IMG/VR virus record: IMGVR_UViG_2724679237_000005
Coordinates: 32,001-96,000 of that record
Strand: one strand, 5' to 3'
Source of the DNA: a virus
Lineage: Duplodnaviria; Heunggongvirae; Uroviricota; Caudoviricetes
Length of the DNA: 64,000 bases
Under the pieces are notes generated by a model, which made no database searches, had not been told where the DNA came from, and saw nothing but the letters and a program-made list of their open reading frames with translations. Position 1 is the stretch's first letter; every line of letters starts with the position of its first letter. The position numbers and the translations under genes are program-made. Positions 31,946 through 48,975 of the stretch are shown one piece after another.

Positions 31946-33208
31946 ATGCCTTTTTTAATTTTCATTATTATACTACTGCTCACCGTGATTTTTTGGGATT
32001 GGGTTGTTTTAAATGGTCAAATTGTTGGAACATTGGCTACAGCATTTGCTTTTATAGCAACAGCATGGAATGCCTACGAAGCGAGAAAAAGTGCAAAAGC
32101 AGCTTTTTCAGCCCTTCAATTAACAACAGAATCATTGTTCGAAATGCGAAAGAGTGCATTTAAACAATGGTTTGATTCCTTATTAAATCAACATGATGAG
32201 CTATGTCTTCTTGCAAAACAAATTATCGATAAACGCAAAGTTAATTTAAACAGCGATGAGTTACATAGACTATATTACCCATTGGTAAAACAGCATGAGG
32301 TAATACAGTATGTGAAGCATATTATTAATATTTTTGAGTATGTGGATAGTTCATTTTATATTGATGGGGAATGTCTAAAGGAAAAAAGAGCGTATGTGTC
32401 ACAATTAATTTTCAAAATCCCACCTCAGATGAAGTTGATCATTGCTATCTTTGGATTAAAAATCGATTATTGTGAACATATTAATTCGGGAAAACTGTGT
32501 TGTTTATTGAATAAATATGATTTTTTCAATGATGAAATATTTTTTGATGATGCTTATTCAGATATGCCTTATCTGGATGCATTCATAAACCTTAGATTCA
32601 ACAAAATATTCAAATCTCGAATGATAAATTATTTTGATAATATCATTAAAAGTTATTATGTTCCATCGGACGTTAAAAGGGACTGGATGTTTCGAAACCC
32701 AAAGCTCGTGCCGTCGGTTCTTATGAATTATAAAACTCCTTGTTCTCCTATAATTAATGATTACTTTGAGAAGTTGCCTTTACATGTAAGAAACTACTTT
32801 GAGGAACTACTTAAAACCGCGAATGATAGAGTTACTCATTTTGACGTTTACATCCCACGCCTTATTGGTTGTTCAATCGTGCAACATTACGAAGATGTGC
32901 CTTCCGAAAAAAACAGGTTAAATGACAGGAATGATGTAATAGCTATGGCTGAAGATTACATCGAGAAAAGAAAATATAATCAACTGGATTACATACTTGA
33001 AGATATATACTTCAAGAGTGACGAAGATATAATCCCTGGCCACCATTTGATTGTGGCATTTGATGACTATGAATTTAAATTATCACTCATTAAGATAAAT
33101 GAGAATAAAGATAGCGATAATCTTTTAAATCGAATTTATACTGAATCCAGTAGCATGGTTAAAGAATATAAGCGCGAAATATTAAAACTGGGCGACTATG
33201 TAAAGTAA
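31946..33208 (+). CDS. membrane-anchored protein of unknown function in AT-rich island (candidate defence or exclusion protein)
   Basis: 420-aa ORF, two N-terminal hydrophobic helices, strongly AT-rich versus surroundings, own terminator. Confidence 0.6.
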   Translation: MPFLIFIIILLLTVIFWDWVVLNGQIVGTLATAFAFIATAWNAYEARKSAKAAFSALQLTTESLFEMRKSAFKQWFDSLLNQHDELCLLAKQIIDKRKVNLNSDELHRLYYPLVKQHEVIQYVKHIINIFEYVDSSFYIDGECLKEKRAYVSQLIFKIPPQMKLIIAIFGLKIDYCEHINSGKLCCLLNKYDFFNDEIFFDDAYSDMPYLDAFINLRFNKIFKSRMINYFDNIIKSYYVPSDVKRDWMFRNPKLVPSVLMNYKTPCSPIINDYFEKLPLHVRNYFEELLKTANDRVTHFDVYIPRLIGCSIVQHYEDVPSEKNRLNDRNDVIAMAEDYIEKRKYNQLDYILEDIYFKSDEDIIPGHHLIVAFDDYEFKLSLIKINENKDSDNLLNRIYTESSSMVKEYKREILKLGDYVK

Positions 33209-33400: not shown

Positions 33401-33487
33401 TGGCGGAGAGTAATGGAATCGAACCATCATCGTTTGCACAATGGGACGGTTTTCAAGACCGCTTGAGCACCATGCTCCCTACTCTCC
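33401..33487 (-). tRNA. tRNA-Ser (anticodon UGA), type II with long variable arm
   Basis: hand-folded cloverleaf: acceptor GGAGAGT/ACTCTCC, anticodon loop CTTGAAA, T-loop GGTTCGATTCC, encoded CCA. Confidence 0.75.
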
Positions 33488-33807
33488 AGCTATTGTGATG
33501 GTCGGTGCTGAACTCCGACACAGGGTTGTAGCAAGCCCCGCAAAGCGCGCACTACTGTAGTTGCGGCACATCAGCCTGTGCATTCATCACAATGGTAAGA
33601 TCACTACCTTTCGACCAGTCATTGTGCACATGAACGACGATTAACCGTAATGATATTATCGTTGTGTTGTGAAGCCAGATGCTTATCTTCTGGTTGCTTC
33701 AAAGAGCTGCACTTCCTCACAACGGTAAGAGCACTGGTCTGACTCTATCGATTTACGGCCTTGTGGGTCAGTATCGCCGATTCGCCCAATGCTCTTACCT
33801 GTTGTGT

Positions 33808-33883
33808 TGGTGCCGGTTAACGGACTTGAACCGCTGGCCATTCGCTTACAAAACGACTGCTCTACCAACTGAGCTAAACCGGC
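33808..33883 (-). tRNA. tRNA-Thr (anticodon UGU)
   Basis: acceptor GCCGGTT/AACCGGC, D-arm GCTCAGTTGGTAGAGC, anticodon loop TTTGTAA, T-arm AGCGGTTCAAGTCCGTT, CCA. Confidence 0.8.
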
Positions 33884-33887
33884 AATT

Positions 33888-33974
33888 TGGTGGGGAGTGA
33901 TGGAGTCGAACCACCCGAGTCGCCATGACAGTAGATTTACAGTCTACACCGCTACCTCTACGGACTAACTCCCC
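33888..33974 (-). tRNA. tRNA-Tyr (anticodon GUA), long variable arm
   Basis: acceptor GGGGAGT/ACTCCCC, anticodon arm GTAGA-CTGTAAA-TCTAC, T-loop GGTTCGACTCC, CCA. Confidence 0.7.
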
Positions 33975-33979
33975 TAAAT

Positions 33980-34054
33980 TGGCGATGGTGGGTGGATTCG
34001 AACCACCGACCAGTTGGTTAACAGCCAACTGCTCTACCGCTGAGCTACACCATC
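33980..34054 (-). tRNA. tRNA-Asn (anticodon GUU)
   Basis: acceptor GATGGTG/CACCATC, anticodon arm GTTGG-CTGTTAA-CCAAC, T-arm GGTGGTTCGAATCCACC, CCA. Confidence 0.8.
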
Positions 34055-34832
34055 AATTCAGCACTGCCAGTATTTATTACTCAACAGTGCCAATCGCGAC
34101 GGTTTAGTTTCTGCCAGGAAACGCACCGCTACTTGCACTTTTCGTTAGTGCCAGACGCTTTCGACTTCGCTCAATAGTAGAAGGCAAAATCTTTAAGTAG
34201 ATGATGTTTCTGAGGACAGCACCTACTTTGTAATTTATACAATGTGATGTATGGAATCATTTGTTGTGAAAACAGGCACCAATGGCAACAGTGGTTAAAC
34301 CTACACAACAATCCCGTCTTCACAACGTTGAGGCCACTACTCCGATTGAATGTTTGCCCAACATGTTACATATCAACGCTCGCCGGTATCTCTGTGAATA
34401 GAACCTTAGAATTGATAAAAATGTAATGGCCTCAACGTTGTGTGCTGGCTAACCATACCAGCCGGGCTACGTCGCCGCTTTTTAACCCAGTATAAACGAC
34501 ATAATTGAACAAAATGACGTAACAGGATGGGCGGTCAGTGGCTAAGAATCCGGGAGTCATATGGAGTTGAAAATATACCAACCGCCCATTCTGTTACTTC
34601 ATCGGAGGGAACATGAATGTTCCCTCCTGCGTTCTGCAATCACACTCGCTCAGTGTGTCCCATTTCGGTAACGAGGCTGGAAACTGACCTCGCTGGTGTT
34701 TGGCTTATTAGGCTACTGCCAGATAGACTTCTTCGTTTGCACTTGTATTTAAGTTCAAACAGTCGCGTCTCAACGAAAACAAAGTCATCTTATACATAAA
34801 AGATAAGTAAGTAAACACTTATCGCTGTGTTT

Positions 34833-35123
34833 TTATTCGGTTGTGACTTTTTTGATCAAGGCCACTCTACGACTAGGTGTTCTTGTGATGGTGGCAGTGA
34901 ATCGTTTCGCTTGGATAGTAATGGTTTCGTTCTCCTTAAGTTGCCCGTAGCGAGTTTCAACCAGGGTGCCAAGACGCCACAGACCATCATCGATACGTTT
35001 ATGACTAGCAAATTTAATCAGCAACAGTTTTACGACTAACTGACCTACGTAAAAGGCGAATGCGACTCCGGCCGCTAAGAAATAGGTGGCCAACCACCAT
35101 TCCCAAGAAGTTAACTTGCTCAT
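34833..35123 (-). CDS. membrane protein (N-terminal TM helix)
   Basis: 96-aa ORF, AAAGGTGA RBS, ATGA overlap with upstream small ORF. Confidence 0.5.
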   Translation of the reverse strand: MSKLTSWEWWLATYFLAAGVAFAFYVGQLVVKLLLIKFASHKRIDDGLWRLGTLVETRYGQLKENETITIQAKRFTATITRTPSRRVALIKKVTTE

Positions 35124-35272
35124 TTTTTCACCTTTGTTTCATGAACTACCCGATACACGCGCTTTCCGATGCACAGTGTTTTGGTTTTAAGTTCCTGCTT
35201 AATCAAATCACGACAGATGCCGAAGCCGATAAGGAAGCCACCCATAAAAGCCAATGAGATGTATGGAATCAT
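35120..35272 (-). CDS. small membrane protein
   Basis: 50-aa ORF starting MIPYI inside the GTATGGAATCATTT motif, AGGAG RBS 7 nt upstream, ATGA-coupled both sides. Confidence 0.4.
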   Translation of the reverse strand: MIPYISLAFMGGFLIGFGICRDLIKQELKTKTLCIGKRVYRVVHETKVKK

Positions 35273-35484
35273 TTCAACGCTCCTGACTCTACTAGTTGCT
35301 GTAGCAATACTTTCCCTTTATCAGTTAACTGGTAGTTGGCCGAACACTTCGTTTCAGAAACGTTTGCAACCAACCCTAACCGCTCTAACTTAGCCCGCGT
35401 TTTAGGCTTCCAGTACTCAGGGAACTCTGACCACTTACTGATTTCATGAAGTGTTTCCTTCTCCCGTTTACTTAATACGATCAT
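35269..35484 (-). CDS. hypothetical protein
   Basis: 71-aa ORF with strong AAGGAGA RBS. Confidence 0.5.
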   Translation of the reverse strand: MIVLSKREKETLHEISKWSEFPEYWKPKTRAKLERLGLVANVSETKCSANYQLTDKGKVLLQQLVESGALK

Positions 35485-35647
35485 CCTTAATCTCCTTCAC
35501 GGTGTTGGTTATTTCTACAATGCGATAAATACGACCGCGTCTTTCTATAACACCGCTTTTAATGTAGTCATTGATGCAACTGGACATCACCACAATACCT
35601 ATGAAAAAACCAACTGCTAAAAATGCAATCATCCAACCGAGCATCAT
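35471..35647 (-). CDS. small membrane protein
   Basis: 58-codon ORF with N-terminal TM helix; ATGATG start overlaps ligase stop. Confidence 0.35.
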
Positions 35648-36966
35648 TCTTTATCTCCGATTCGATCTTCTGTATCGCGTAAGCAACGCGGCCATTTCAG
35701 TCGTGGGTGGCGTAAGCTGCCATCCGGCGTTTTCTCGTGACAATGAACCTCGACAATACGACCACGGTACTTCTCTTTGTTGTTCCAGATCTCGTCCAGA
35801 TATTTATGCTTAATGCCGCTCGCACGAACAATCACACCGTTTTCAAGGCGAATAACAATTTTTCCAAGCGTGTTGGCAAAACCAGAGTCCGGGTCGCCCG
35901 GCTCAAAGTCGATAATTTCACCATCTTCTGAATCTTCGTCTTTTAACTTCCACCAGCTGCGGGTACGTTTAAACTCGTAAACAGAGTTCGGATCTTTGCC
36001 CATCTCCCCTTCTTCGTTATCGTCCAGGCGTTTCATGAAGCGTTCGATGAAGTCTTCGTGGCTATGGATGATATAGAACGGATGCAGGTGAATGTCTTGT
36101 GTGTAGCCTTCACTGCGATCGTTTTTGAACAACGCCACCAGCATAGCCAGGCGCTCTTTCAGCTTCATACCTGTCTTTGCATACTCTTTGGATTTAGCCT
36201 GTGCTCGCCATTCCGGTAGGAAGAAGTCGAAAACATGATAAATAGCGCCAATTGCCTGCACGTTCTTTTTGCGCAATGCAGATACGGACTGGTTAAATGA
36301 ACCGGCTGTTCCTTCACCATCGAAGAAGATGTGTTTGTGGCCTGAAAGTTTGCCTAATTCGAGCATGGCTGGCTTTAGGTGATCGAGAGACGTGATTGGA
36401 TTACCAGTACGAGAAAGGAAGTTAACCTCTTCCTCGTCAACAATAACCTCACAAATTACTCGCAAACCATCGAGCTTAAGGCTGCCAATCATCGGCCATT
36501 TGGCTTTAGGATTTGGCTTGAAGGGGTATTTGTCGCCTTTTTCTTTATACGGTGACGCCAGCTGCACCTCGAATTTCGGAATGGGATTTTCAAAAACCTT
36601 GTTGCATAGGCTAATCCCAACGCCAGCTTTCGGATCTTTTAAGAGGAAACGACGGAAGACGTCCTGCCCATCGGCGCACATTGACGCAACGATAGACTCA
36701 ACAGCAGCTATTGCTGCGTTCCCCGTCAGCTCGCGAGAGGCCAGCTTATTCAGTATATCAATGGCTTTTTCGTCACTAGGGACGGACTCACTAAGCGGCT
36801 CTGCCACTTTGTATTTCTTTACCCCAAAACGGATGAAAGGGTTGAGCATCAATGAAACCATGCTTTGCTCGAAGTCATCCATGTTGGCTAATGCCTCTTT
36901 TTTTGCATTGGTTCCCATAGCTTTCATTTCGTCCAGCTTATGCTTAAGTGCGATCAACTTTTTCAT
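35644..36966 (-). CDS. ATP-dependent DNA ligase
   Basis: KLDGLR (motif I KxDG), FDGEG, WWKLK motifs of nucleotidyltransferase ligases. Confidence 0.8.
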   Translation of the reverse strand: MKKLIALKHKLDEMKAMGTNAKKEALANMDDFEQSMVSLMLNPFIRFGVKKYKVAEPLSESVPSDEKAIDILNKLASRELTGNAAIAAVESIVASMCADGQDVFRRFLLKDPKAGVGISLCNKVFENPIPKFEVQLASPYKEKGDKYPFKPNPKAKWPMIGSLKLDGLRVICEVIVDEEEVNFLSRTGNPITSLDHLKPAMLELGKLSGHKHIFFDGEGTAGSFNQSVSALRKKNVQAIGAIYHVFDFFLPEWRAQAKSKEYAKTGMKLKERLAMLVALFKNDRSEGYTQDIHLHPFYIIHSHEDFIERFMKRLDDNEEGEMGKDPNSVYEFKRTRSWWKLKDEDSEDGEIIDFEPGDPDSGFANTLGKIVIRLENGVIVRASGIKHKYLDEIWNNKEKYRGRIVEVHCHEKTPDGSLRHPRLKWPRCLRDTEDRIGDKE

Positions 36967-39052: not shown

Positions 39053-40198
39053 ATGAAATACATAAAACCTTCATCGTTGCTGGCATTAACTTTGCTTTTT
39101 AGCTCTGGATTCGTTAACGCAGACAATAAACAAACGCTGATAGAAGCCGCTAACGCAGGTGATACCGCAGCACAAAGTGAGTTAGGGACAAATTATTTGG
39201 ATGGTGTCAATGGTTTTGATAAGGATGTAGTTGAGGCCAAGAAGTGGATTGATCTCGCTGCAGAAAAGGGAGATAAAGTAGCATATTATGCACTTGGAGT
39301 TATGTACACATTTGGCGAGGGTGTAGATAAAGACCTAAATAAAGCTGTTGAGTACTACAAACTTGCGGGGGATGCTCGTGAAGGTAGAGCCTACAACAAT
39401 CTTGGTGCTATTTATCAAAAGGGGATGCTTGGTAAAGTAGATCATGCACTCGCCATTAAATACTTCAAACTAGCCTCTGATGCCGGGTATGTTAAAGCAA
39501 CTTCAGTTCTTGGGGCGTATTACCAATATGGTAAAGGCGTTCAAAAGAATTATAAAAAGGCTTTTACTTATTACAAAAAGGCGGCAGACCAAGGCAGTTC
39601 AGAAGCTATGATAGGATTAGGAATACTATACGATGATGGGTTAGGCGTTAAACGCAATGATGCAGAAGCAGTTAAGTGGTATAAAAAGGCAGCGGAACTT
39701 GGAAACGCCGACGCCATAACCAATCTTGGCATTATGTATGAGAATGGGGAAGGAGTAAAAAAGGACTATAAAAAAGCAGCCGACCTTTATCAGACTGCTT
39801 GCAATAAAGGAGAAAAAAGAGGCTGTGAATACATTACTGAACTGAAAGAAAGCGGAAAATATCGAGTATCTGATTCCAAAGCCAAATCAAAATCAGATGT
39901 ACAGCGACTTATTGCTAAATCCATTGATAAAGGCGTTAACGCAACTTTTACCTGGCAAGGTGATGACGCCACATTCACCGCTAATGGCGGCAAAATTGAC
40001 TGCACTTTCCTAAAGGATTTTTCAGAGAAAGGAGGCAATCTGGCTACCTCGTTTGTTTGCACCGATAACGTTCAAATCATCCTGAAGCAATTCAGAGATA
40101 CCAAGAATGCCTACCTCGCGGTAATGACTGACAACTTCAACACAGAAGTTAAATCATTTTCGGTCAATGTTTACGTGACTAATACTGGTTCAAACTAA
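39053..40198 (+). CDS. secreted Sel1-like repeat (SLR/TPR-like) protein with extra C-terminal domain
   Basis: signal peptide then about 6 repeats of A..W(Y)..AA..G...A...LG.MY..G.GV..D; plus strand, lower GC. Confidence 0.75.
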   Translation: MKYIKPSSLLALTLLFSSGFVNADNKQTLIEAANAGDTAAQSELGTNYLDGVNGFDKDVVEAKKWIDLAAEKGDKVAYYALGVMYTFGEGVDKDLNKAVEYYKLAGDAREGRAYNNLGAIYQKGMLGKVDHALAIKYFKLASDAGYVKATSVLGAYYQYGKGVQKNYKKAFTYYKKAADQGSSEAMIGLGILYDDGLGVKRNDAEAVKWYKKAAELGNADAITNLGIMYENGEGVKKDYKKAADLYQTACNKGEKRGCEYITELKESGKYRVSDSKAKSKSDVQRLIAKSIDKGVNATFTWQGDDATFTANGGKIDCTFLKDFSEKGGNLATSFVCTDNVQIILKQFRDTKNAYLAVMTDNFNTEVKSFSVNVYVTNTGSN

Positions 40199-41371
40199 TG
40201 CTGCTATGCCTTTTACCTTGCTTAAAAGTTCAAGCTGTCGTGAGTAAGGTTTTGCGCAATAGTAGGCTTTGATAATCTTCCCCGGTGTCGCATCGCCGGG
40301 GTCGAGTCCTTCCTCGCCCAAACACGCAACTTTGACATTAAGACCGATACTGGTCAGTCGCCTGGCTGCGGCCATAGTGTTGCGTATAGCTTGCTTTTCA
40401 CTATCCCACATCATGATCACATTACGTAACCCACGCGCCTTGAGCGTCAGGAACGCGCCTAACTGATCTTCTGCATCCTGAGTGGTGTTACCAGATAGAT
40501 GCATCCCGAACGTTCCTATTGGTTCCACGTAATCACGTAATGTTTCTTCGTCAAAAATAGCTCGTTTAACCCCCATAACATCGAACGCCCCCTCACAGAC
40601 AACTACAGTCTGTTTGCCGACTGCATTATGGCCGTTGTAGAGAAACTTACCTGAAGCTGGAAGCTGCATAGGAAAGAGGTAGCGGCGTTCTGCTGTACCG
40701 GTAATGTCTCGTCCCTGAAATGTCTTCATTACCCCATCCAGATCGTAAACCGGTATCAGTATTCGCATATCGAATATCTGCCCTTTTACCTGATCTGTAT
40801 ACGGATCTACATAAGCGTGCTTGCCTTCGACGCAGTATCGTAGGTCAAAATACTTTGCCATTTCAGGTGATATGTTTCGTTCAACCAGATAGTCTGGAAG
40901 ACGGCCATCTATAGGAAGCTCGTAATGACGAGGGAGTGCAACTGGCCCCTCTAACTCGACTGTGCTTGCAAGCACTAGCTCTTCTTTCTTTGGTGCCCAC
41001 CCCTGGGAAAGAAGGGCGTTCTGCACATATTCCTCGAACTGTCGTCGTGATTTGCCGCTGTAGTGCTTGAGGAAGACCAGCTTATTGAACTGAATCTCTT
41101 CGGGATGATCACCAGCGAAGCATTTACCGACGCCACTGGTCAGATTGAAATATACCTTCCAGTTGGAGCTGCCGCATACCGGACACTCTTTGATATTCAC
41201 TTCACGACCGCGAGCACTCACGCCTCCACGTCGATAAACGATACCTTCAGTATCCAACCATTGTTCAAAATCTAATTCGGCAATTAGCTCTTTCAGCTCG
41301 CTCACGATAATTCCACTTTTAACAGGCAATATTGTGACCAACCTAAATGTTGATATAACATAAAGGCTCAT
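40190..41371 (-). CDS. DnaG-like DNA primase (zinc finger + TOPRIM)
   Basis: CPVCGSS...C zinc ribbon, TOPRIM VVVCEGAFD; start taken at internal ATG (ORF-track start is GTG at 41443). Confidence 0.7.
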   Translation of the reverse strand: MSLYVISTFRLVTILPVKSGIIVSELKELIAELDFEQWLDTEGIVYRRGGVSARGREVNIKECPVCGSSNWKVYFNLTSGVGKCFAGDHPEEIQFNKLVFLKHYSGKSRRQFEEYVQNALLSQGWAPKKEELVLASTVELEGPVALPRHYELPIDGRLPDYLVERNISPEMAKYFDLRYCVEGKHAYVDPYTDQVKGQIFDMRILIPVYDLDGVMKTFQGRDITGTAERRYLFPMQLPASGKFLYNGHNAVGKQTVVVCEGAFDVMGVKRAIFDEETLRDYVEPIGTFGMHLSGNTTQDAEDQLGAFLTLKARGLRNVIMMWDSEKQAIRNTMAAARRLTSIGLNVKVACLGEEGLDPGDATPGKIIKAYYCAKPYSRQLELLSKVKGIAALV

Positions 41372-41456: not shown

Positions 41457-42793
41457 GTAACGTCTAAGATTCGCTCAATGAAGCGCATTTGTTCGAGGTT
41501 TTGTTTAACGCGAATGCTGATCCCTCCCTGCTGGTTACGCGAACCAGCAAAGTAGAGACGAGCCTCTCCTTTCGCTTCTTCTTCTTCGGTTTTGTTGATC
41601 GTTATTACCAGGTCAGCAATACGTACTTTTTCGATGTTGTCGGCAGCGTGCATCATTGTGGCAACTTCTGACGCGCCACCTTCACGGTTTGTTTGCGACG
41701 CCGTGATACCAGCAACGTTATGCTTGTCATAAAGAGCACGTAAATCGGTGTAGATACTACGAATGTTGGCGCGATCATCACGAAGGTCATAACTGGCACG
41801 CATCAAATCTGCGTAGTCGACAACAACCATGTCAGGCACCATGCCATTGGCTTTCATACTGTTAAGCATACGGTCCAGATCTGCCGGTGACATACTTCCT
41901 GACGGACGCTCAACAACCCACAAACTACCAATCCCCTTAGAGGCTCCCAACTCTGCCAACTTACGATGAACTTCATCGCGCCGTTCCACCAACTTGGACA
42001 TTTCCGTCTCCGACAATCTTGCATCAAAACGGTCGGACAAAATGTTGGTGTGAACCTCCAGCGAGAGATACAGAACATTGTAGCCAGCAAGCGTTGCGTT
42101 TATGGAAAACTCACCCATTGCGGTCGATTTACCGGATTTAGCGAACCCCATGAAGAGCACCATTTCGCGCTTTGCCCAGCCTTTTTGGTACAGCAACCTA
42201 TCGAGAAGAGGGAGTCCAGTTGTAATACTGTTTGGTACATACTCCTCTGAAGCCTCATATTCACGCGCTTTCAATCGCTCACTTGCGGAGGTGTAGTAGT
42301 CATAGATTCCGGTCGCTTCGTTCGATCCAATCTGCTGAACCTTGGCCATGATTGCCATCGCCCCCTGAAAGTCGCCCTTCTCTTTCAGTTCAGCAGCCTT
42401 AATCAGAGCATCATCAAACGCTACGCTTTTTGCGAAGGTTGATACCTGGTCAACCATGTACGAGGTATCGGACAATTTTTCTGCAAGGATGCGCTTAAAC
42501 GCAGCAACAACATCGGCGAATAGTTCCTCACGGATAGTCTTATCGCGTTTCGCACGCTTAAGCATATCCAGAATTGCAGATGAAGAGGGCGCGCTCTTGT
42601 ACATACGGTAATAGCCCGAAACCATATTAACCAATATGGCATTGGCCGCATTGGCAAATTGGCTAGGCACAACCAGATCTCCCGCACGAGTAAGAAACTC
42701 GTGATCACGACAAAAATATGCCGTCAGTCTGTTCTGGAAATCTTCATCAAACTCTTCGGACAGCCCGCGTCCTGTATGGCAAAGTTCGGTCAT
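41453..42793 (-). CDS. DnaB-like replicative helicase
   Basis: RecA-fold Walker A GFAKSGKST, Walker B VVVDYADL; ATG start with AAGGA RBS. Confidence 0.8.
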   Translation of the reverse strand: MTELCHTGRGLSEEFDEDFQNRLTAYFCRDHEFLTRAGDLVVPSQFANAANAILVNMVSGYYRMYKSAPSSSAILDMLKRAKRDKTIREELFADVVAAFKRILAEKLSDTSYMVDQVSTFAKSVAFDDALIKAAELKEKGDFQGAMAIMAKVQQIGSNEATGIYDYYTSASERLKAREYEASEEYVPNSITTGLPLLDRLLYQKGWAKREMVLFMGFAKSGKSTAMGEFSINATLAGYNVLYLSLEVHTNILSDRFDARLSETEMSKLVERRDEVHRKLAELGASKGIGSLWVVERPSGSMSPADLDRMLNSMKANGMVPDMVVVDYADLMRASYDLRDDRANIRSIYTDLRALYDKHNVAGITASQTNREGGASEVATMMHAADNIEKVRIADLVITINKTEEEEAKGEARLYFAGSRNQQGGISIRVKQNLEQMRFIERILDVT

Positions 42794-47229: not shown

Positions 47230-47457
47230 TCAGTTCAGGTGCCCCCACTCACACAGCCTTTCACCTATCGTATTGTGGATAAGCAACTGTCGCTCCGTTT
47301 CCTCAGTCATAAAATCCTCTCTACTCACATAGATAGGATTTGCAGCATCGCAGAATAGCACGCCTGGAGCCTGCGTCTTAATCACGCACCCATTTATCAA
47401 ACAGCTCGCGATGAACACCAGAGGCATCTTTTTGCCGCACTTCATTAACCGTTTCAT
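47230..47457 (-). CDS. o-spanin (Rz1-like lipoprotein) in alternative frame overlapping Rz
   Basis: signal peptide with lipobox LINGC; start codon uncertain. Confidence 0.45.
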   Translation of the reverse strand: MKRLMKCGKKMPLVFIASCLINGCVIKTQAPGVLFCDAANPIYVSREDFMTEETERQLLIHNTIGERLCEWGHLN

Positions 47458-47629
47458 TTTTGACATCCACTGTGCTTTGAAGTCGTTTTCTGTCTTCCTG
47501 TTTTGCCTTCTCTTCCATTGCTCGTCGCGCCGCATTTCCGCCCATCGTGTAAGCGCCGACCAGAACGAAAAGAACGGCAGCCAGCGTAATCAAAGCAACT
47601 TTTAGCTTTGTCATCAGGCTGCCTAGCAT
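47378..47629 (-). CDS. i-spanin (Rz-like)
   Basis: N-terminal TM helix followed by charged coiled-coil region; AAAGGGA RBS. Confidence 0.55.
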   Translation of the reverse strand: MLGSLMTKLKVALITLAAVLFVLVGAYTMGGNAARRAMEEKAKQEDRKRLQSTVDVKNETVNEVRQKDASGVHRELFDKWVRD

Positions 47630-47630
47630 A

Positions 47631-48323
47631 TTAGACCATCCCTTTCTGGTGTCTTCTTACCTGCGACCAGGCGATAAATCCAGCCACAACAATAGTGGCA
47701 ATACCGAAGATGATGCGTACTGTATCCCCGCTAGAGATATGACCTTGTGCTTTATCCATAGCAGCGGAAACCTGCGGCATAACATCGGCCAGCTGCGCCA
47801 GACCAATACCTGCTGTAACAGTTGCGCCTGCTGTTTCTTTAGTTACAGGAACAGCCTTCACGGTTTTCACCGGCTTAACGACGCCAGCTCGACGCAGACC
47901 TTCCTCAATAACTTCTGCCGCATACCAGGTGTTCAGCGTTTTTAGCGGACCTCGCCCATTCTCATGGCGAATGATTGCCTCAACCAAAGGTCGAAGAATG
48001 TCGTAATCATGCAGATCGATAATCATGTCTGCGGTTACACCAACGGCTTTAGACACCTCATTAATGTAGGCGTCAGTATTGTTTTCATTCGGCGGTGCCC
48101 AGCGTTCAATAACTTCACGAATGGTATCGATACTTGAGCCGTCTTTTGCGCGACGTTTGTCGTGGTAGGTAATTAGAGTCACCGCCAGCGCACGAATCCC
48201 CCAAACAGGGTCTTTAAACGTGCAAAAGCGCGGTTCGTCTGGATTCGCAACCAGACCTTGCCACGGTGATCCTTTATCAAGATTACCGGGGTTATTATTA
48301 CGAATGCCTCTCGGAGTCTTCAT
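47631..48323 (-). CDS. putative endolysin (peptidoglycan hydrolase) with C-terminal hydrophobic segment
   Basis: position between holin-like gene and spanins; IRNNNPGNL motif; enzymatic family not confirmed. Confidence 0.4.
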   Translation of the reverse strand: MKTPRGIRNNNPGNLDKGSPWQGLVANPDEPRFCTFKDPVWGIRALAVTLITYHDKRRAKDGSSIDTIREVIERWAPPNENNTDAYINEVSKAVGVTADMIIDLHDYDILRPLVEAIIRHENGRGPLKTLNTWYAAEVIEEGLRRAGVVKPVKTVKAVPVTKETAGATVTAGIGLAQLADVMPQVSAAMDKAQGHISSGDTVRIIFGIATIVVAGFIAWSQVRRHQKGMV

Positions 48324-48336
48324 CCTTGATCTCCTG

Positions 48337-48660
48337 TTATTGCAGTCCATTTTTTACGCCATACGCGGCTAACCCCAAAAGCAGTGCAGTAATAATGAAC
48401 GACGTTATTTTAGAAACAATGCCGCCAAAGAACCCACTGGAGATGGAATCTAACCGGTTAAGGAGCTTGTCCAGGTTGGAGTGTTGAATACTATGTTGCG
48501 CTGGGGTCATATCACCAAAGTAGGTTTTCAGCTGATCATTGACCTCCTGGCCAATTTCTTCACGTAGCTCTTTGCCTAATTTGCCAACAACCTCCCGAGC
48601 AACGATCGCGGCAATACGCTCAACTTGCTCTGTTGTAACGCCCGCCATCTCGTTCGACAT
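48337..48660 (-). CDS. holin-like small membrane protein
   Basis: single C-terminal TM helix; first gene of lysis cluster; GGAGG RBS. Confidence 0.35.
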   Translation of the reverse strand: MSNEMAGVTTEQVERIAAIVAREVVGKLGKELREEIGQEVNDQLKTYFGDMTPAQHSIQHSNLDKLLNRLDSISSGFFGGIVSKITSFIITALLLGLAAYGVKNGLQ

Positions 48661-48738
48661 GTTTTCCTCCATGAAAAGTCAAATCGGGATGGCGGATTTA
48701 TATCACATTTCACCCTTTTGTTGTAGGTGTGTACTTAC

Positions 48739-48975
48739 CTACCATTCAGCATTGCAACGGACTGATGAGAAAGCACCTACTCCTACCCATCGCCAGTTAT
48801 AGATGCTACCCGCTTTGTATAAGGTATAGTCGTTCACTTTTTTAACAGCATATATGGGTATGACTGTCTCCTGTCCACCAATGATAGCCTCACCATAACA
48901 TATAGGTGTCGGCAATTTCTGGCAGCCAGTAAGAGAGAGAACAACAGCTATTGTTAGAAATAATCTTTTCATCAT
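48739..48975 (-). CDS. lipoprotein (candidate superinfection-exclusion factor)
   Basis: signal peptide with lipobox LTGC; sits between tail-fiber accessory genes and lysis genes. Confidence 0.5.
   Translation of the reverse strand: MMKRLFLTIAVVLSLTGCQKLPTPICYGEAIIGGQETVIPIYAVKKVNDYTLYKAGSIYNWRWVGVGAFSSVRCNAEW

Follow-up and report, generated by a model that had tools for sequence, protein, structure and literature searches.

The 64,000-nucleotide stretch of viral DNA analysed here, which comprises positions 32,001 to 96,000 of the IMG/VR record IMGVR_UViG_2724679237_000005 (the window), carries directly downstream of a DNA ligase gene a compact run of four small open reading frames (ORFs), denoted A–D. 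What do such small proteins do for the element that encodes them, and what is contained in the region that follows? An initial annotation had likened the run to holin/antiholin, toxin–antitoxin, or superinfection-exclusion modules, and had described the region behind it as non-coding, with a half-site and a promoter-like motif. As discussed below, A–D are most likely lytic-phase membrane and DNA-binding accessories, whereas their assignment to a lysis, toxin–antitoxin, or lysogenic-conversion module is disfavoured. The adjoining region, in turn, appears to encode a structured RNA that resembles transfer-messenger RNA (tmRNA) and is apparently undescribed.

The four consecutive minus-strand ORFs of 58, 71, 50, and 96 residues reported earlier after the ligase are all present in the ORF list (Table 1), with A comprising either 59 or 58 residues, and two of them, A and C, are indeed shorter than 60 residues. 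Coupling through ATGA motifs, in which the stop and start codons overlap, had been claimed for the whole run; it is found at the ligase/A, B/C, and C/D junctions, whereas A and B overlap by 17 nt. A Shine-Dalgarno sequence (GGAG, AAGGAG, AGGAG, and AAGGTG) is located 7-9 nt upstream of every start codon. Lack of conservation in related elements had been named as an observation that would count against these ORFs; on the contrary, all four are intact and syntenic, in the same order, in SSU5, pJN2-26, and pMT of Yersinia pestis, as well as in plasmids of Citrobacter, Klebsiella, and Cronobacter, and their order, lengths, and overlaps are kept in ten related loci from six genera. The pairwise ratios of nonsynonymous to synonymous substitution rates (dN/dS), calculated against the window, are 0.11-0.15 for A, 0.17-0.34 for C, and 0.09-0.12 for D, while for B dN is 0.23-0.32 and dS is saturated; the substitutions in A–D are enriched at third codon positions. 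Each ORF also matches over its full length a PHROG family of unknown function: PHROG 4381 for A (E=3.6e-39), PHROG 4054 for B (E=3.9e-45), PHROG 6302 for C (E=1.4e-36), and PHROG 4507 for D (E=5.4e-58). On the strength of the synteny, the dN/dS values and third-position excess, the Shine-Dalgarno sites and overlaps, as well as the PHROG matches, A–D are genuine protein-coding genes under purifying selection, with translational coupling both to the ligase and within the run.

The region between positions 34500 and 37000 shares 98% identity with Escherichia phage Cyrano (the phage-plasmid pLF82 of E. coli LF82) and 75-79% identity with Salmonella phage SSU5 and Klebsiella phage pJN2-26, and it matches 786 plasmids from Klebsiella, Escherichia, Enterobacter, Yersinia (pMT), Salmonella, Citrobacter, and Cronobacter. 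Because of these identities and plasmid matches, the window can be assigned by sequence comparison to an SSU5-type phage-plasmid, a group that takes in pHCM2 of S. Typhi, pMT of Y. pestis, and many clinical plasmids of E. coli and Klebsiella. A–D close the phage-type DNA-replication operon of this element at its 3′ end; the genes of the operon, nearly contiguous and all on one strand, follow the order helicase, primase, two unknowns, ATP-dependent ligase, A, B, C, and D. The four genes appear to be confined to the SSU5-type lineage. Searches of 5.8 billion proteins for remote homologues of B and D returned SSU5-type relatives only, as did tblastn searches of phages with the same two proteins, except for one B-like ORF in Klebsiella phage VLCpiS13f (38% identity), and the homologues of B and D sit on SSU5-type elements of ~100-110 kb. 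A–D are already catalogued in databases without a function, and they are real but ordinary small lineage-specific genes; taken alone they matter modestly, as a conserved lineage-specific accessory module of SSU5-type phage-plasmids.

The block is not complete in every relative. In the Klebsiella plasmid NZ_CP129731 (L011, 3350-3598) a deletion has left ~70 N-terminal residues of the ligase fused to ~12 C-terminal residues of B; the ligase body, A, and most of B are gone, and C and D are intact. This pattern is common to many Klebsiella plasmids. In another Klebsiella plasmid, NZ_CP070439 (L012, 1926-2344), A and B are intact and C and D are disrupted. The two variants demonstrate that the block is divisible and not required for plasmid maintenance, for which A–D are individually dispensable.

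Three of the four proteins had been described as carrying an N-terminal transmembrane helix, and hydropathy supports this for A, C, and D, each of which has a single N-terminal hydrophobic helix, with maximum 19-residue Kyte–Doolittle values of 2.55, 1.84, and 2.00, respectively (0.17 for B). The residues that follow the helix are strongly basic, the net charges of A, C, and D being +3, +7, and +8, and by the positive-inside rule the tails would be cytoplasmic. Each tail is predicted or expected to fold as a short β-hairpin. The conserved portion of these membrane proteins is the basic tail, and both the helix and the end of the tail evolve fast. A and C have in common the transmembrane helix and an R-x-Y-R-[IV]-V motif, and an hhalign comparison aligns them over 41 collinear columns (P=1.1e-5, 82% probability), which identifies them as paralogues. 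The model of D, of low confidence (predicted local distance difference test, pLDDT, 65), consists of the transmembrane helix prolonged into a long helix that extends to residue 60, a β-hairpin (KRFTATITRT), and a basic disordered tail. By eye the segment RFTATITRT is similar to R[IV]YR[IV]V of A and C, but the hhalign probability of a relationship of D to these proteins is 0.6-2.6%, leaving it unproven. No Pfam or NCBIfam family matches D. In RefSeq its homologues bear the label 'C-type natriuretic protein' (e.g., YP_006906680.1 and WP_071684178.1), which is without support in any family search and looks like a propagated mis-annotation.

Protein B, in turn, is predicted to be a soluble, minimal MarR-like winged-helix protein. 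Its AlphaFold model (pLDDT 79) includes helices 6-17, 30-35, and 55-67, as well as strands 39-41 and 51-53. The top 50 matches to this model found by Foldseek in the PDB are almost all winged helix-turn-helix (wHTH) regulators, with TM-scores of 0.5-0.73 and E-values of 0.02 or worse, the best of them being wHTH domains of the MarR family (0.6-0.73). Among Pfam profiles B has no sequence match above a wHTH family threshold; HTH_45 is found at 14 bits (E=0.054, cut-off 25.5) and EarA at 13.7 bits (cut-off 22), both sub-threshold, and the Csa3 model of PADLOC matches with its C-terminal wHTH domain only (E=5e-4). The predicted core of B, comprising a helix, a recognition helix, and a β-wing, is like that of the MarR and Csa3 wHTH domains, although the second helix of their helix-turn-helix is replaced in B by a Trp-rich loop, and the 71-residue B is without the dimerisation helices of MarR proteins.

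Expression of these genes in the plasmid state can be judged from RNA sequencing of the LF82 lysogen of Cyrano, the 98%-identical relative, in overnight LB culture (PMC9928086, S1 Table). Normalised reads are 5.9 for the ligase, 6.4 for B, 5.0 (the floor) for C, and 7.6 for D, and all four, with B, C, and D being CYRAN_37-39, are at a level equal to that of the terminase and other virion genes (PMC9928086). The list of lysogen-expressed Cyrano genes ('morons') includes KacT, RelE, and HicAB, and the ligase, B, C, and D are absent from it (PMC9928086). B–D are silent in the lysogen. Since toxin–antitoxin or addiction modules, as well as exclusion systems expressed from a prophage, need expression in the lysogen, both of these readings are disfavoured. 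Small hydrophobic peptides encoded beside a small predicted DNA-binding protein do resemble some toxin–antitoxin layouts, and the element is a plasmid; nevertheless, a plasmid-addiction module composed of a membrane toxin and of B as its small regulator is highly improbable. The genes are silent in a state in which KacT, RelE, and HicAB of Cyrano are expressed, their expression is coupled to the ligase and does not start from a promoter of their own, no toxin or antitoxin matches A–D in Pfam, NCBIfam, or PADLOC, and variants without A–B or without C–D persist. The toxin–antitoxin proposal of the initial annotation is thus not upheld.

The proposal of a holin/antiholin pair fared similarly. A complete holin–endolysin–Rz cassette, with a Cor gene beside it, is located in the window 12-13 kb from A–D (the whole block occupies positions 47381-48972), whereas A–D are not beside endolysin or spanin genes and are coupled instead to the DNA ligase of the replication operon. 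Small membrane proteins with charged C termini would suit a holin/antiholin or another lysis-timing module, and D gives a weak match to the holin family phrog_2359 (E=0.023). This sole holin-family match covers only the transmembrane helix (residues 7-34) and is not significant, and no Pfam holin family matches any of the four proteins; we consider a role in the timing of lysis very unlikely.

The architecture of the proteins and their gene neighbourhood suggest a different function. A–D would constitute a lytic-phase accessory module that is co-translated with the replication ligase, in which A, C, and D, anchored in the membrane, would act through their basic cytoplasmic hairpin tails on nucleic acid at the cytoplasmic face of the inner membrane. 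They would tether or organise the replicating phage genome, or the replisome, at the membrane, with B as a soluble DNA-binding partner. We can tentatively propose such a tethering or organising role of A–D in the lytic phase by analogy with phage phi29, where the membrane proteins p16.7 and p1 organise phage DNA replication. These proteins are also small and encoded with replication genes, they combine an N-terminal anchor with a cytoplasmic part that binds nucleic acid, and they are accessory and non-essential. On the other hand, similarity to the phi29 proteins was demonstrated neither in sequence nor in fold. Protein p16.7 has ~130 residues and a dimeric helical DNA-binding domain, whereas the tails of A, C, and D comprise 25-60 residues and are predicted to form β-hairpins; furthermore, the hosts of SSU5-type elements are Gram-negative, and DNA binding by A–D is a proposed property.

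Several points weigh against the tethering of DNA by these proteins. The arguments for it are the architecture and the gene neighbourhood alone, and nucleic-acid binding by A, C, and D is itself a proposal. Early operons of phages often hold unrelated host-takeover genes, so that gene order alone proves no replication role. No homologue of known function was found for A–D by sequence in Pfam, NCBIfam, PHROG, PADLOC, or in the protein and phage searches. In addition, the topology given here for A, C, and D is a prediction of the positive-inside rule, the model of D is of low confidence, and the fold matches of B have weak E-values. Finally, the RNA sequencing data come from a close relative, in which ORF A is unannotated.

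The membrane proteins might instead serve superinfection exclusion or host takeover during the lytic phase, as early inner-membrane proteins that, similar to Imm and Sp of T4, would prevent the DNA of competing phages from entering or disturb membrane functions of the host, with B being an unrelated small regulator. Functions of this sort typically reside in small single-pass membrane proteins from an early or middle operon, and the restriction of the families to one lineage, as well as the fast-evolving helix and tail ends, is what is expected of conflict genes. The dispensability of A–D for plasmid maintenance also agrees with this possibility. Imm and Sp of T4, as well as Cor-type proteins, are very small proteins of the inner membrane or envelope with lineage-specific sequences, like A–D; however, they have no homology to A–D, in which conservation is concentrated in the cytoplasmic tails and not in periplasmic segments, a feature that fits a cytoplasmic partner better. 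No described exclusion protein is matched by A–D in PHROG, PADLOC, or Pfam, and the element already has a homologue of Cor, encoded by a separate gene beside the lysis genes. Because of their silence in the lysogen, these proteins cannot protect it. Superinfection exclusion, as put forward in the initial annotation, is thus disfavoured in its prophage-expressed form, whereas exclusion or takeover limited to lytic growth is a rather unlikely, but still serious, alternative. Reading A–D as lytic-phase membrane and DNA-binding proteins, and not as lysis or addiction genes, narrows the range of experiments that are worthwhile.

The region downstream of D contains more than had been thought. The promoter-like motif spotted there is real and conserved, with TTTACT and TAAGAT separated by 17 nt; the description of the region as non-coding stands only in part, since, besides this conserved predicted promoter, the region appears to encode a structured RNA and is more than a spacer. 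In the SSU5 type the predicted promoter ends ~7 nt upstream of the conserved motif GUUUUCGU with which the RNA starts, and an equivalent promoter (TTGACA-17-TAAGAT or TATAGT) is found at the same distance in Felixounavirus-type copies of the RNA. One lambdoid-type group also has a promoter at the same position (TTGACA-17-TAGATT), whereas other lambdoid copies lie within the late transcript and have a 12-bp closing helix instead. The promoter appears to serve a separate downstream gene, that of the tmRNA-like RNA.

An inverted repeat followed by TTTT, located between D and this RNA, is kept in all SSU5-type relatives; it was not called by the terminator scan, for which it is too AT-rich. The repeat is possibly a weak terminator of the ligase–ABCD operon, an operator, or both, and it may be the half-site of the initial annotation. 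Its position raises the question whether B could be a transcription factor that acts there and couples expression of the RNA and the tRNAs to the replication operon, with A, C, and D as passengers. The predicted winged-helix fold of B would be suitable, and in every SSU5-type locus the conserved 7-bp repeat overlaps the promoter at a distance of 10-30 nt past the cassette. Many Klebsiella elements, however, are without B and yet keep C, D, the repeat, and the RNA, and the lambdoid and Felixounavirus-type copies of the RNA have neither B nor the repeat, and such a regulatory role of B is improbable.

The tmRNA-like RNA core is marked by a short, start-less reading frame. On the minus strand its sequence, with the preceding four letters, is AAGU GCA AAC GAA GAA GUC UAU CUG GCA GUA GCC UAA UAA, which corresponds to a resume-type GCA, a tag of ten codons, and two stops. 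A scan of IMG/VR with a pattern for the tag found at least 119 stretches, encoding ANEEMYLAVA, ANDNQYLAVA, ANEEVYLAVA, ANDEQFLAVA, ANEDTYLAVA, and other tags. In a second scan, which was anchored on the downstream structure only and left the tag unconstrained, 108 unique sequences were obtained, and the ten-codon frame with its stop is kept in all 108 of these homologues. The mean entropy at codon positions 1, 2, and 3 of the frame is 0.27, 0.26, and 0.80, i.e., threefold higher at the third position, with synonymous alternatives at Ala1, Asn2, Ala8, Val9, and Ala10. The stop codon is TAA in 87 sequences, TGA in 19, and TAG in 2. The tag frame is under coding-type conservation, and a check by hand of the homologue sequences found no in-frame start codon upstream of it. 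The +2 frame ([AUG/GUG/CUG] CAA ACG ... UGG CAG UAG) was also considered; translated by hand in a set of tag variants, it shows non-conservative changes of its variable residues, and many copies have CUG in place of the start codon. With this frame rejected, and in view of the entropy pattern, frame 1 is the constrained one.

Directly 3′ of the tag the RNA is predicted to form two H-type pseudoknots, PK2 and PK3. In an alignment of 30 sequences, 97.2% of the pseudoknot cells pair, and the number of double-change cells is 41, compared with 13.2±3.0 in shuffles (none of 500 reaches 41) and 0-1 in slid controls. PK2 contains five covarying pairs, with 99-100% of the cells paired, and its stem is found as CGAGG/CCTCG, TGAGG/CCTCA, CAAGG/CCTTG, and CAGGG/CCCTG. 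Stem 1 of PK3 occurs in five compensatory variants (CACAC/GTGTG, CGCAT/ATGTG, CGTAC/GTATG, CAGAC/GTCTG, and CGCAG/CTGTG). The same helices as in the covariation analysis are found by RNAalifold.

In several of these features the RNA resembles tmRNA (SsrA), the two-piece tmRNAs included. The start-less frame opens with GCA AAC GA and matches the ARAGORN resume consensus, the substitutions in the frame are of the coding type, the stop codon is positioned in a hairpin loop with H-type pseudoknots directly after it, and the tag A-N-[DE]-x-x-[YF]-L-A-V-A is similar to the SsrA tag of E. coli, ANDENYALAA. The differences are equally clear. The phage RNA is without a tRNA-like domain, its core is only ~150-200 nt long, the tag ends with AVA and not with LAA, the RNA is carried by phages and phage-plasmids and not by the host chromosome, and the Rfam scores are far below threshold. 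At the gathering level no tmRNA family of Rfam matches the window or six homologous loci; in E-value mode weak matches centred on the tag appear for beta_tmRNA (E=0.033, 14.4 bits against 84) and tmRNA_permuted (12.8 bits against 47).

No tRNA-like domain (acceptor stem with G3-U70, T-arm, 3′ CCA) was found, and ARAGORN calls no tmRNA in the window. In one homologue ARAGORN recognised the resume consensus and the tag, with 'tRNA domains' assembled from neighbouring tRNA genes. A hidden tRNA-like domain was considered as well, but ARAGORN applied to 170 homologues gave a single 'permuted' call, an artefact assembled from flanking tRNA genes, and no consistent tRNA neighbour, and 75 of the 170 RNA copies have no tRNA within 1.5 kb. 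In many lambdoid prophages the core is enclosed by the 12-bp helix AGUGCUCUUUCC / GGUAAGAGCAUU (L109 1498-1772, L029 822-1096, and L047 933-1207), with a G-U pair near its outer end, and some of these copies abut a tRNA gene or a tRNA-like T-arm sequence. This helix, which is absent from SSU5-type, Felixounavirus-type, and some lambdoid-type copies, may act as a signal for processing or be the remnant of an acceptor stem. The tRNA-like domain of tmRNA was considered as a homologue, in its 5′ half, of the lambdoid closing helix and 5′ motif; this was rejected, since the scores of local alignments with E. coli ssrA are no better than those of shuffles (z -0.7 to 2.0) and the helix is not common to all types of copies. 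Likewise, the invariant (A)GUUUUCGU(C) was evaluated as an antisense seed against tag codons 3-5 of the host tmRNA (GACGAAAACU), to which it has a 10-nt complementarity. The idea is statistically unsupported because runs of equal length are typical of shuffled sequences, which give 10-12-nt runs with G-U pairs allowed (mean ~11; the fraction equal to or above the observed value is 0.23-0.92).

The RNA is spread well beyond the SSU5 type. A distant blastn search of phage genomes with the region 34060-35700 matched 317 records, and most of the matches, 105-113 nt in length, are to 34638-34792 and come from unrelated phages, always in unannotated DNA. These phages include HK620/HK633, Felixounavirus-type phages of Shigella, Citrobacter, and Escherichia, as well as Klebsiella siphoviruses. 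The copy in HK620 (L004 2501-2610) is located between pR'/qut and tQ, and that in Citrobacter phage Michonne (L005 2454-2566) inside a tRNA array. Carriers of the RNA are thus SSU5-type phage-plasmids, HK620/P22-like lambdoids, Felixounavirus-type phages, and Klebsiella siphoviruses. Among 5,426 complete E. coli genomes 258 carry it, mostly on plasmids, and among the RefSeq matches listed it is unannotated. The host chromosome as a source of the tag was rejected: of 185,579 species, represented by one genome each, the pattern was found in three Enterobacteriaceae assemblies only, and in one or more of these the contig that carries it is of SSU5 size.

Literature searches, which extended to the peptide sequences of the tag, yielded no description of this tmRNA-like RNA. 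In the 2014 tmRNA census phage tmRNAs are listed only for mycobacteriophage and Bacillus phage G, and that of mycobacteriophage DS6A has a tRNA-like domain only (PMC4131195). DS6A is the converse case of the RNA described here, which has the tag part only.

We can speculate, with due reserve, that these RNAs represent a new phage class of 'message-only' RNAs, derived from tmRNA by loss of the tRNA-like domain, that still have two pseudoknots and a template, translated, for the tag (A)AN[DE]xx[YF]LAVA and are spread among unrelated enterobacterial phages. The substitution pattern implies translation, so the frame would be read by ribosomes. If it is, the phage must feed its own template into the trans-translation of the host, which might take place by competition or partnership with the host tmRNA–SmpB complex. 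In the SsrA tag of E. coli, SspB recognises a set of residues and ClpX recognises the LAA end. The tag added to rescued proteins would in that case retain the residues for SspB, with the LAA end recognised by ClpX changed to AVA. No accepted route to translation exists for a tmRNA-like template that lacks a tRNA-like domain and is conserved, with a coding signature, across hundreds of phage genomes, and no route for its charging or ribosome entry was found here, which makes this RNA the unusual object of the locus and one of greater interest than the four genes. Its explanation would bring to light either a new means by which phages manipulate the rescue of ribosomes and the tagging of proteins or a new kind of constraint with the appearance of coding. 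The four small genes upstream may be unrelated to it.

Table 1. Positions in the window of the small genes, the tmRNA-like RNA and its parts, and neighbouring features
Feature	Position	Strand	Description
ORF A	35468-35647	-	two adjacent ATGs, giving 59 aa (first) or 58 aa (second); N-terminal transmembrane helix and basic C-terminal tail, motif RRGRIYRIV
ORF B	35269-35484	-	71 aa
ORF C	35120-35272	-	50 aa; N-terminal transmembrane helix and basic tail, motif GKRVYRVVHET
ORF D	34833-35123	-	96 aa
tmRNA-like RNA core (putative)	34629-34781	-	~150-200 nt
RNA core: conserved 5′ motif	34773-34780	-	GUUUUCGU
RNA core: resume-type GCA	34740	-	
RNA core: tag ORF	34711-34740	-	ANEEVYLAVA, 10 codons, no start codon
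RNA core: stops	34705-34710	-	UAAUAA
RNA core: pseudoknot PK2	34658-34692	-	
RNA core: pseudoknot PK3	34629-34657	-	
Predicted sigma-70-type promoter	34787-34815	-	TTTACT 34810-34815, 17-nt spacer, TAAGAT 34787-34792
Inverted repeat	34802-34823	-	GATAAGT-N8-ACTTATC then TTTT; read from sequence; overlaps the -35 element of the RNA promoter
Rest of structured spacer to tRNA-Asn	34055-34628	-	Hairpin (variable) 34604-34627; ~22-bp helix ~34514-34603; several long hairpins
tRNA array Asn, Tyr, Thr, Ser	33401-34054	-	ARAGORN and Rfam tRNA matches; downstream of the tmRNA-like RNA
ATP-dependent DNA ligase	35644-36966	-	440 aa; annotated as DNA ligase in Cyrano, SSU5, and pJN2-26
Primase homologue	40193-41305	-	Same strand as the four small genes
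Helicase homologue	41459-42793	-	Same strand as the four small genes
Rz (spanin)	47381-47629	-	tblastn of SSU5 protein, 82% identity; SSU5 annotation
Endolysin	47634-48323	-	tblastn of SSU5 protein, 94% identity; SSU5 annotation
Holin	48340-48660	-	tblastn of SSU5 protein, 96% identity; SSU5 annotation
Cor exclusion gene	48760-48972	-	tblastn of SSU5 protein, 59% identity; SSU5 annotation

The remainder of the spacer, between the RNA core and the tRNA array (34055-34628), is conserved and specific to SSU5-type elements, and has no match in Rfam. Its ~22-bp helix shows compensatory changes in an alignment of 11 SSU5-type loci. Compared with shuffles, folding of the 718-nt spacer (34055-34772) has a z-score of -6.9, and that of 34520-34772 a z-score of -4.2. 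The segment 34055-34628 could be part of one long RNA, a platform for processing of the tRNA array, or an element that acts at the DNA level. Close relatives differ in the tRNAs of the array. Asn, Thr, and Ser are common to the window and Cyrano (L001 2307-2554), the window has Tyr in addition, and SSU5 has Asn only (L002 2497-2568). In the LF82 lysogen CYRAN_40, an ORF annotated over tRNA-Ser, is 15-fold above background, and the tRNA region is therefore transcribed in lysogeny (PMC9928086).

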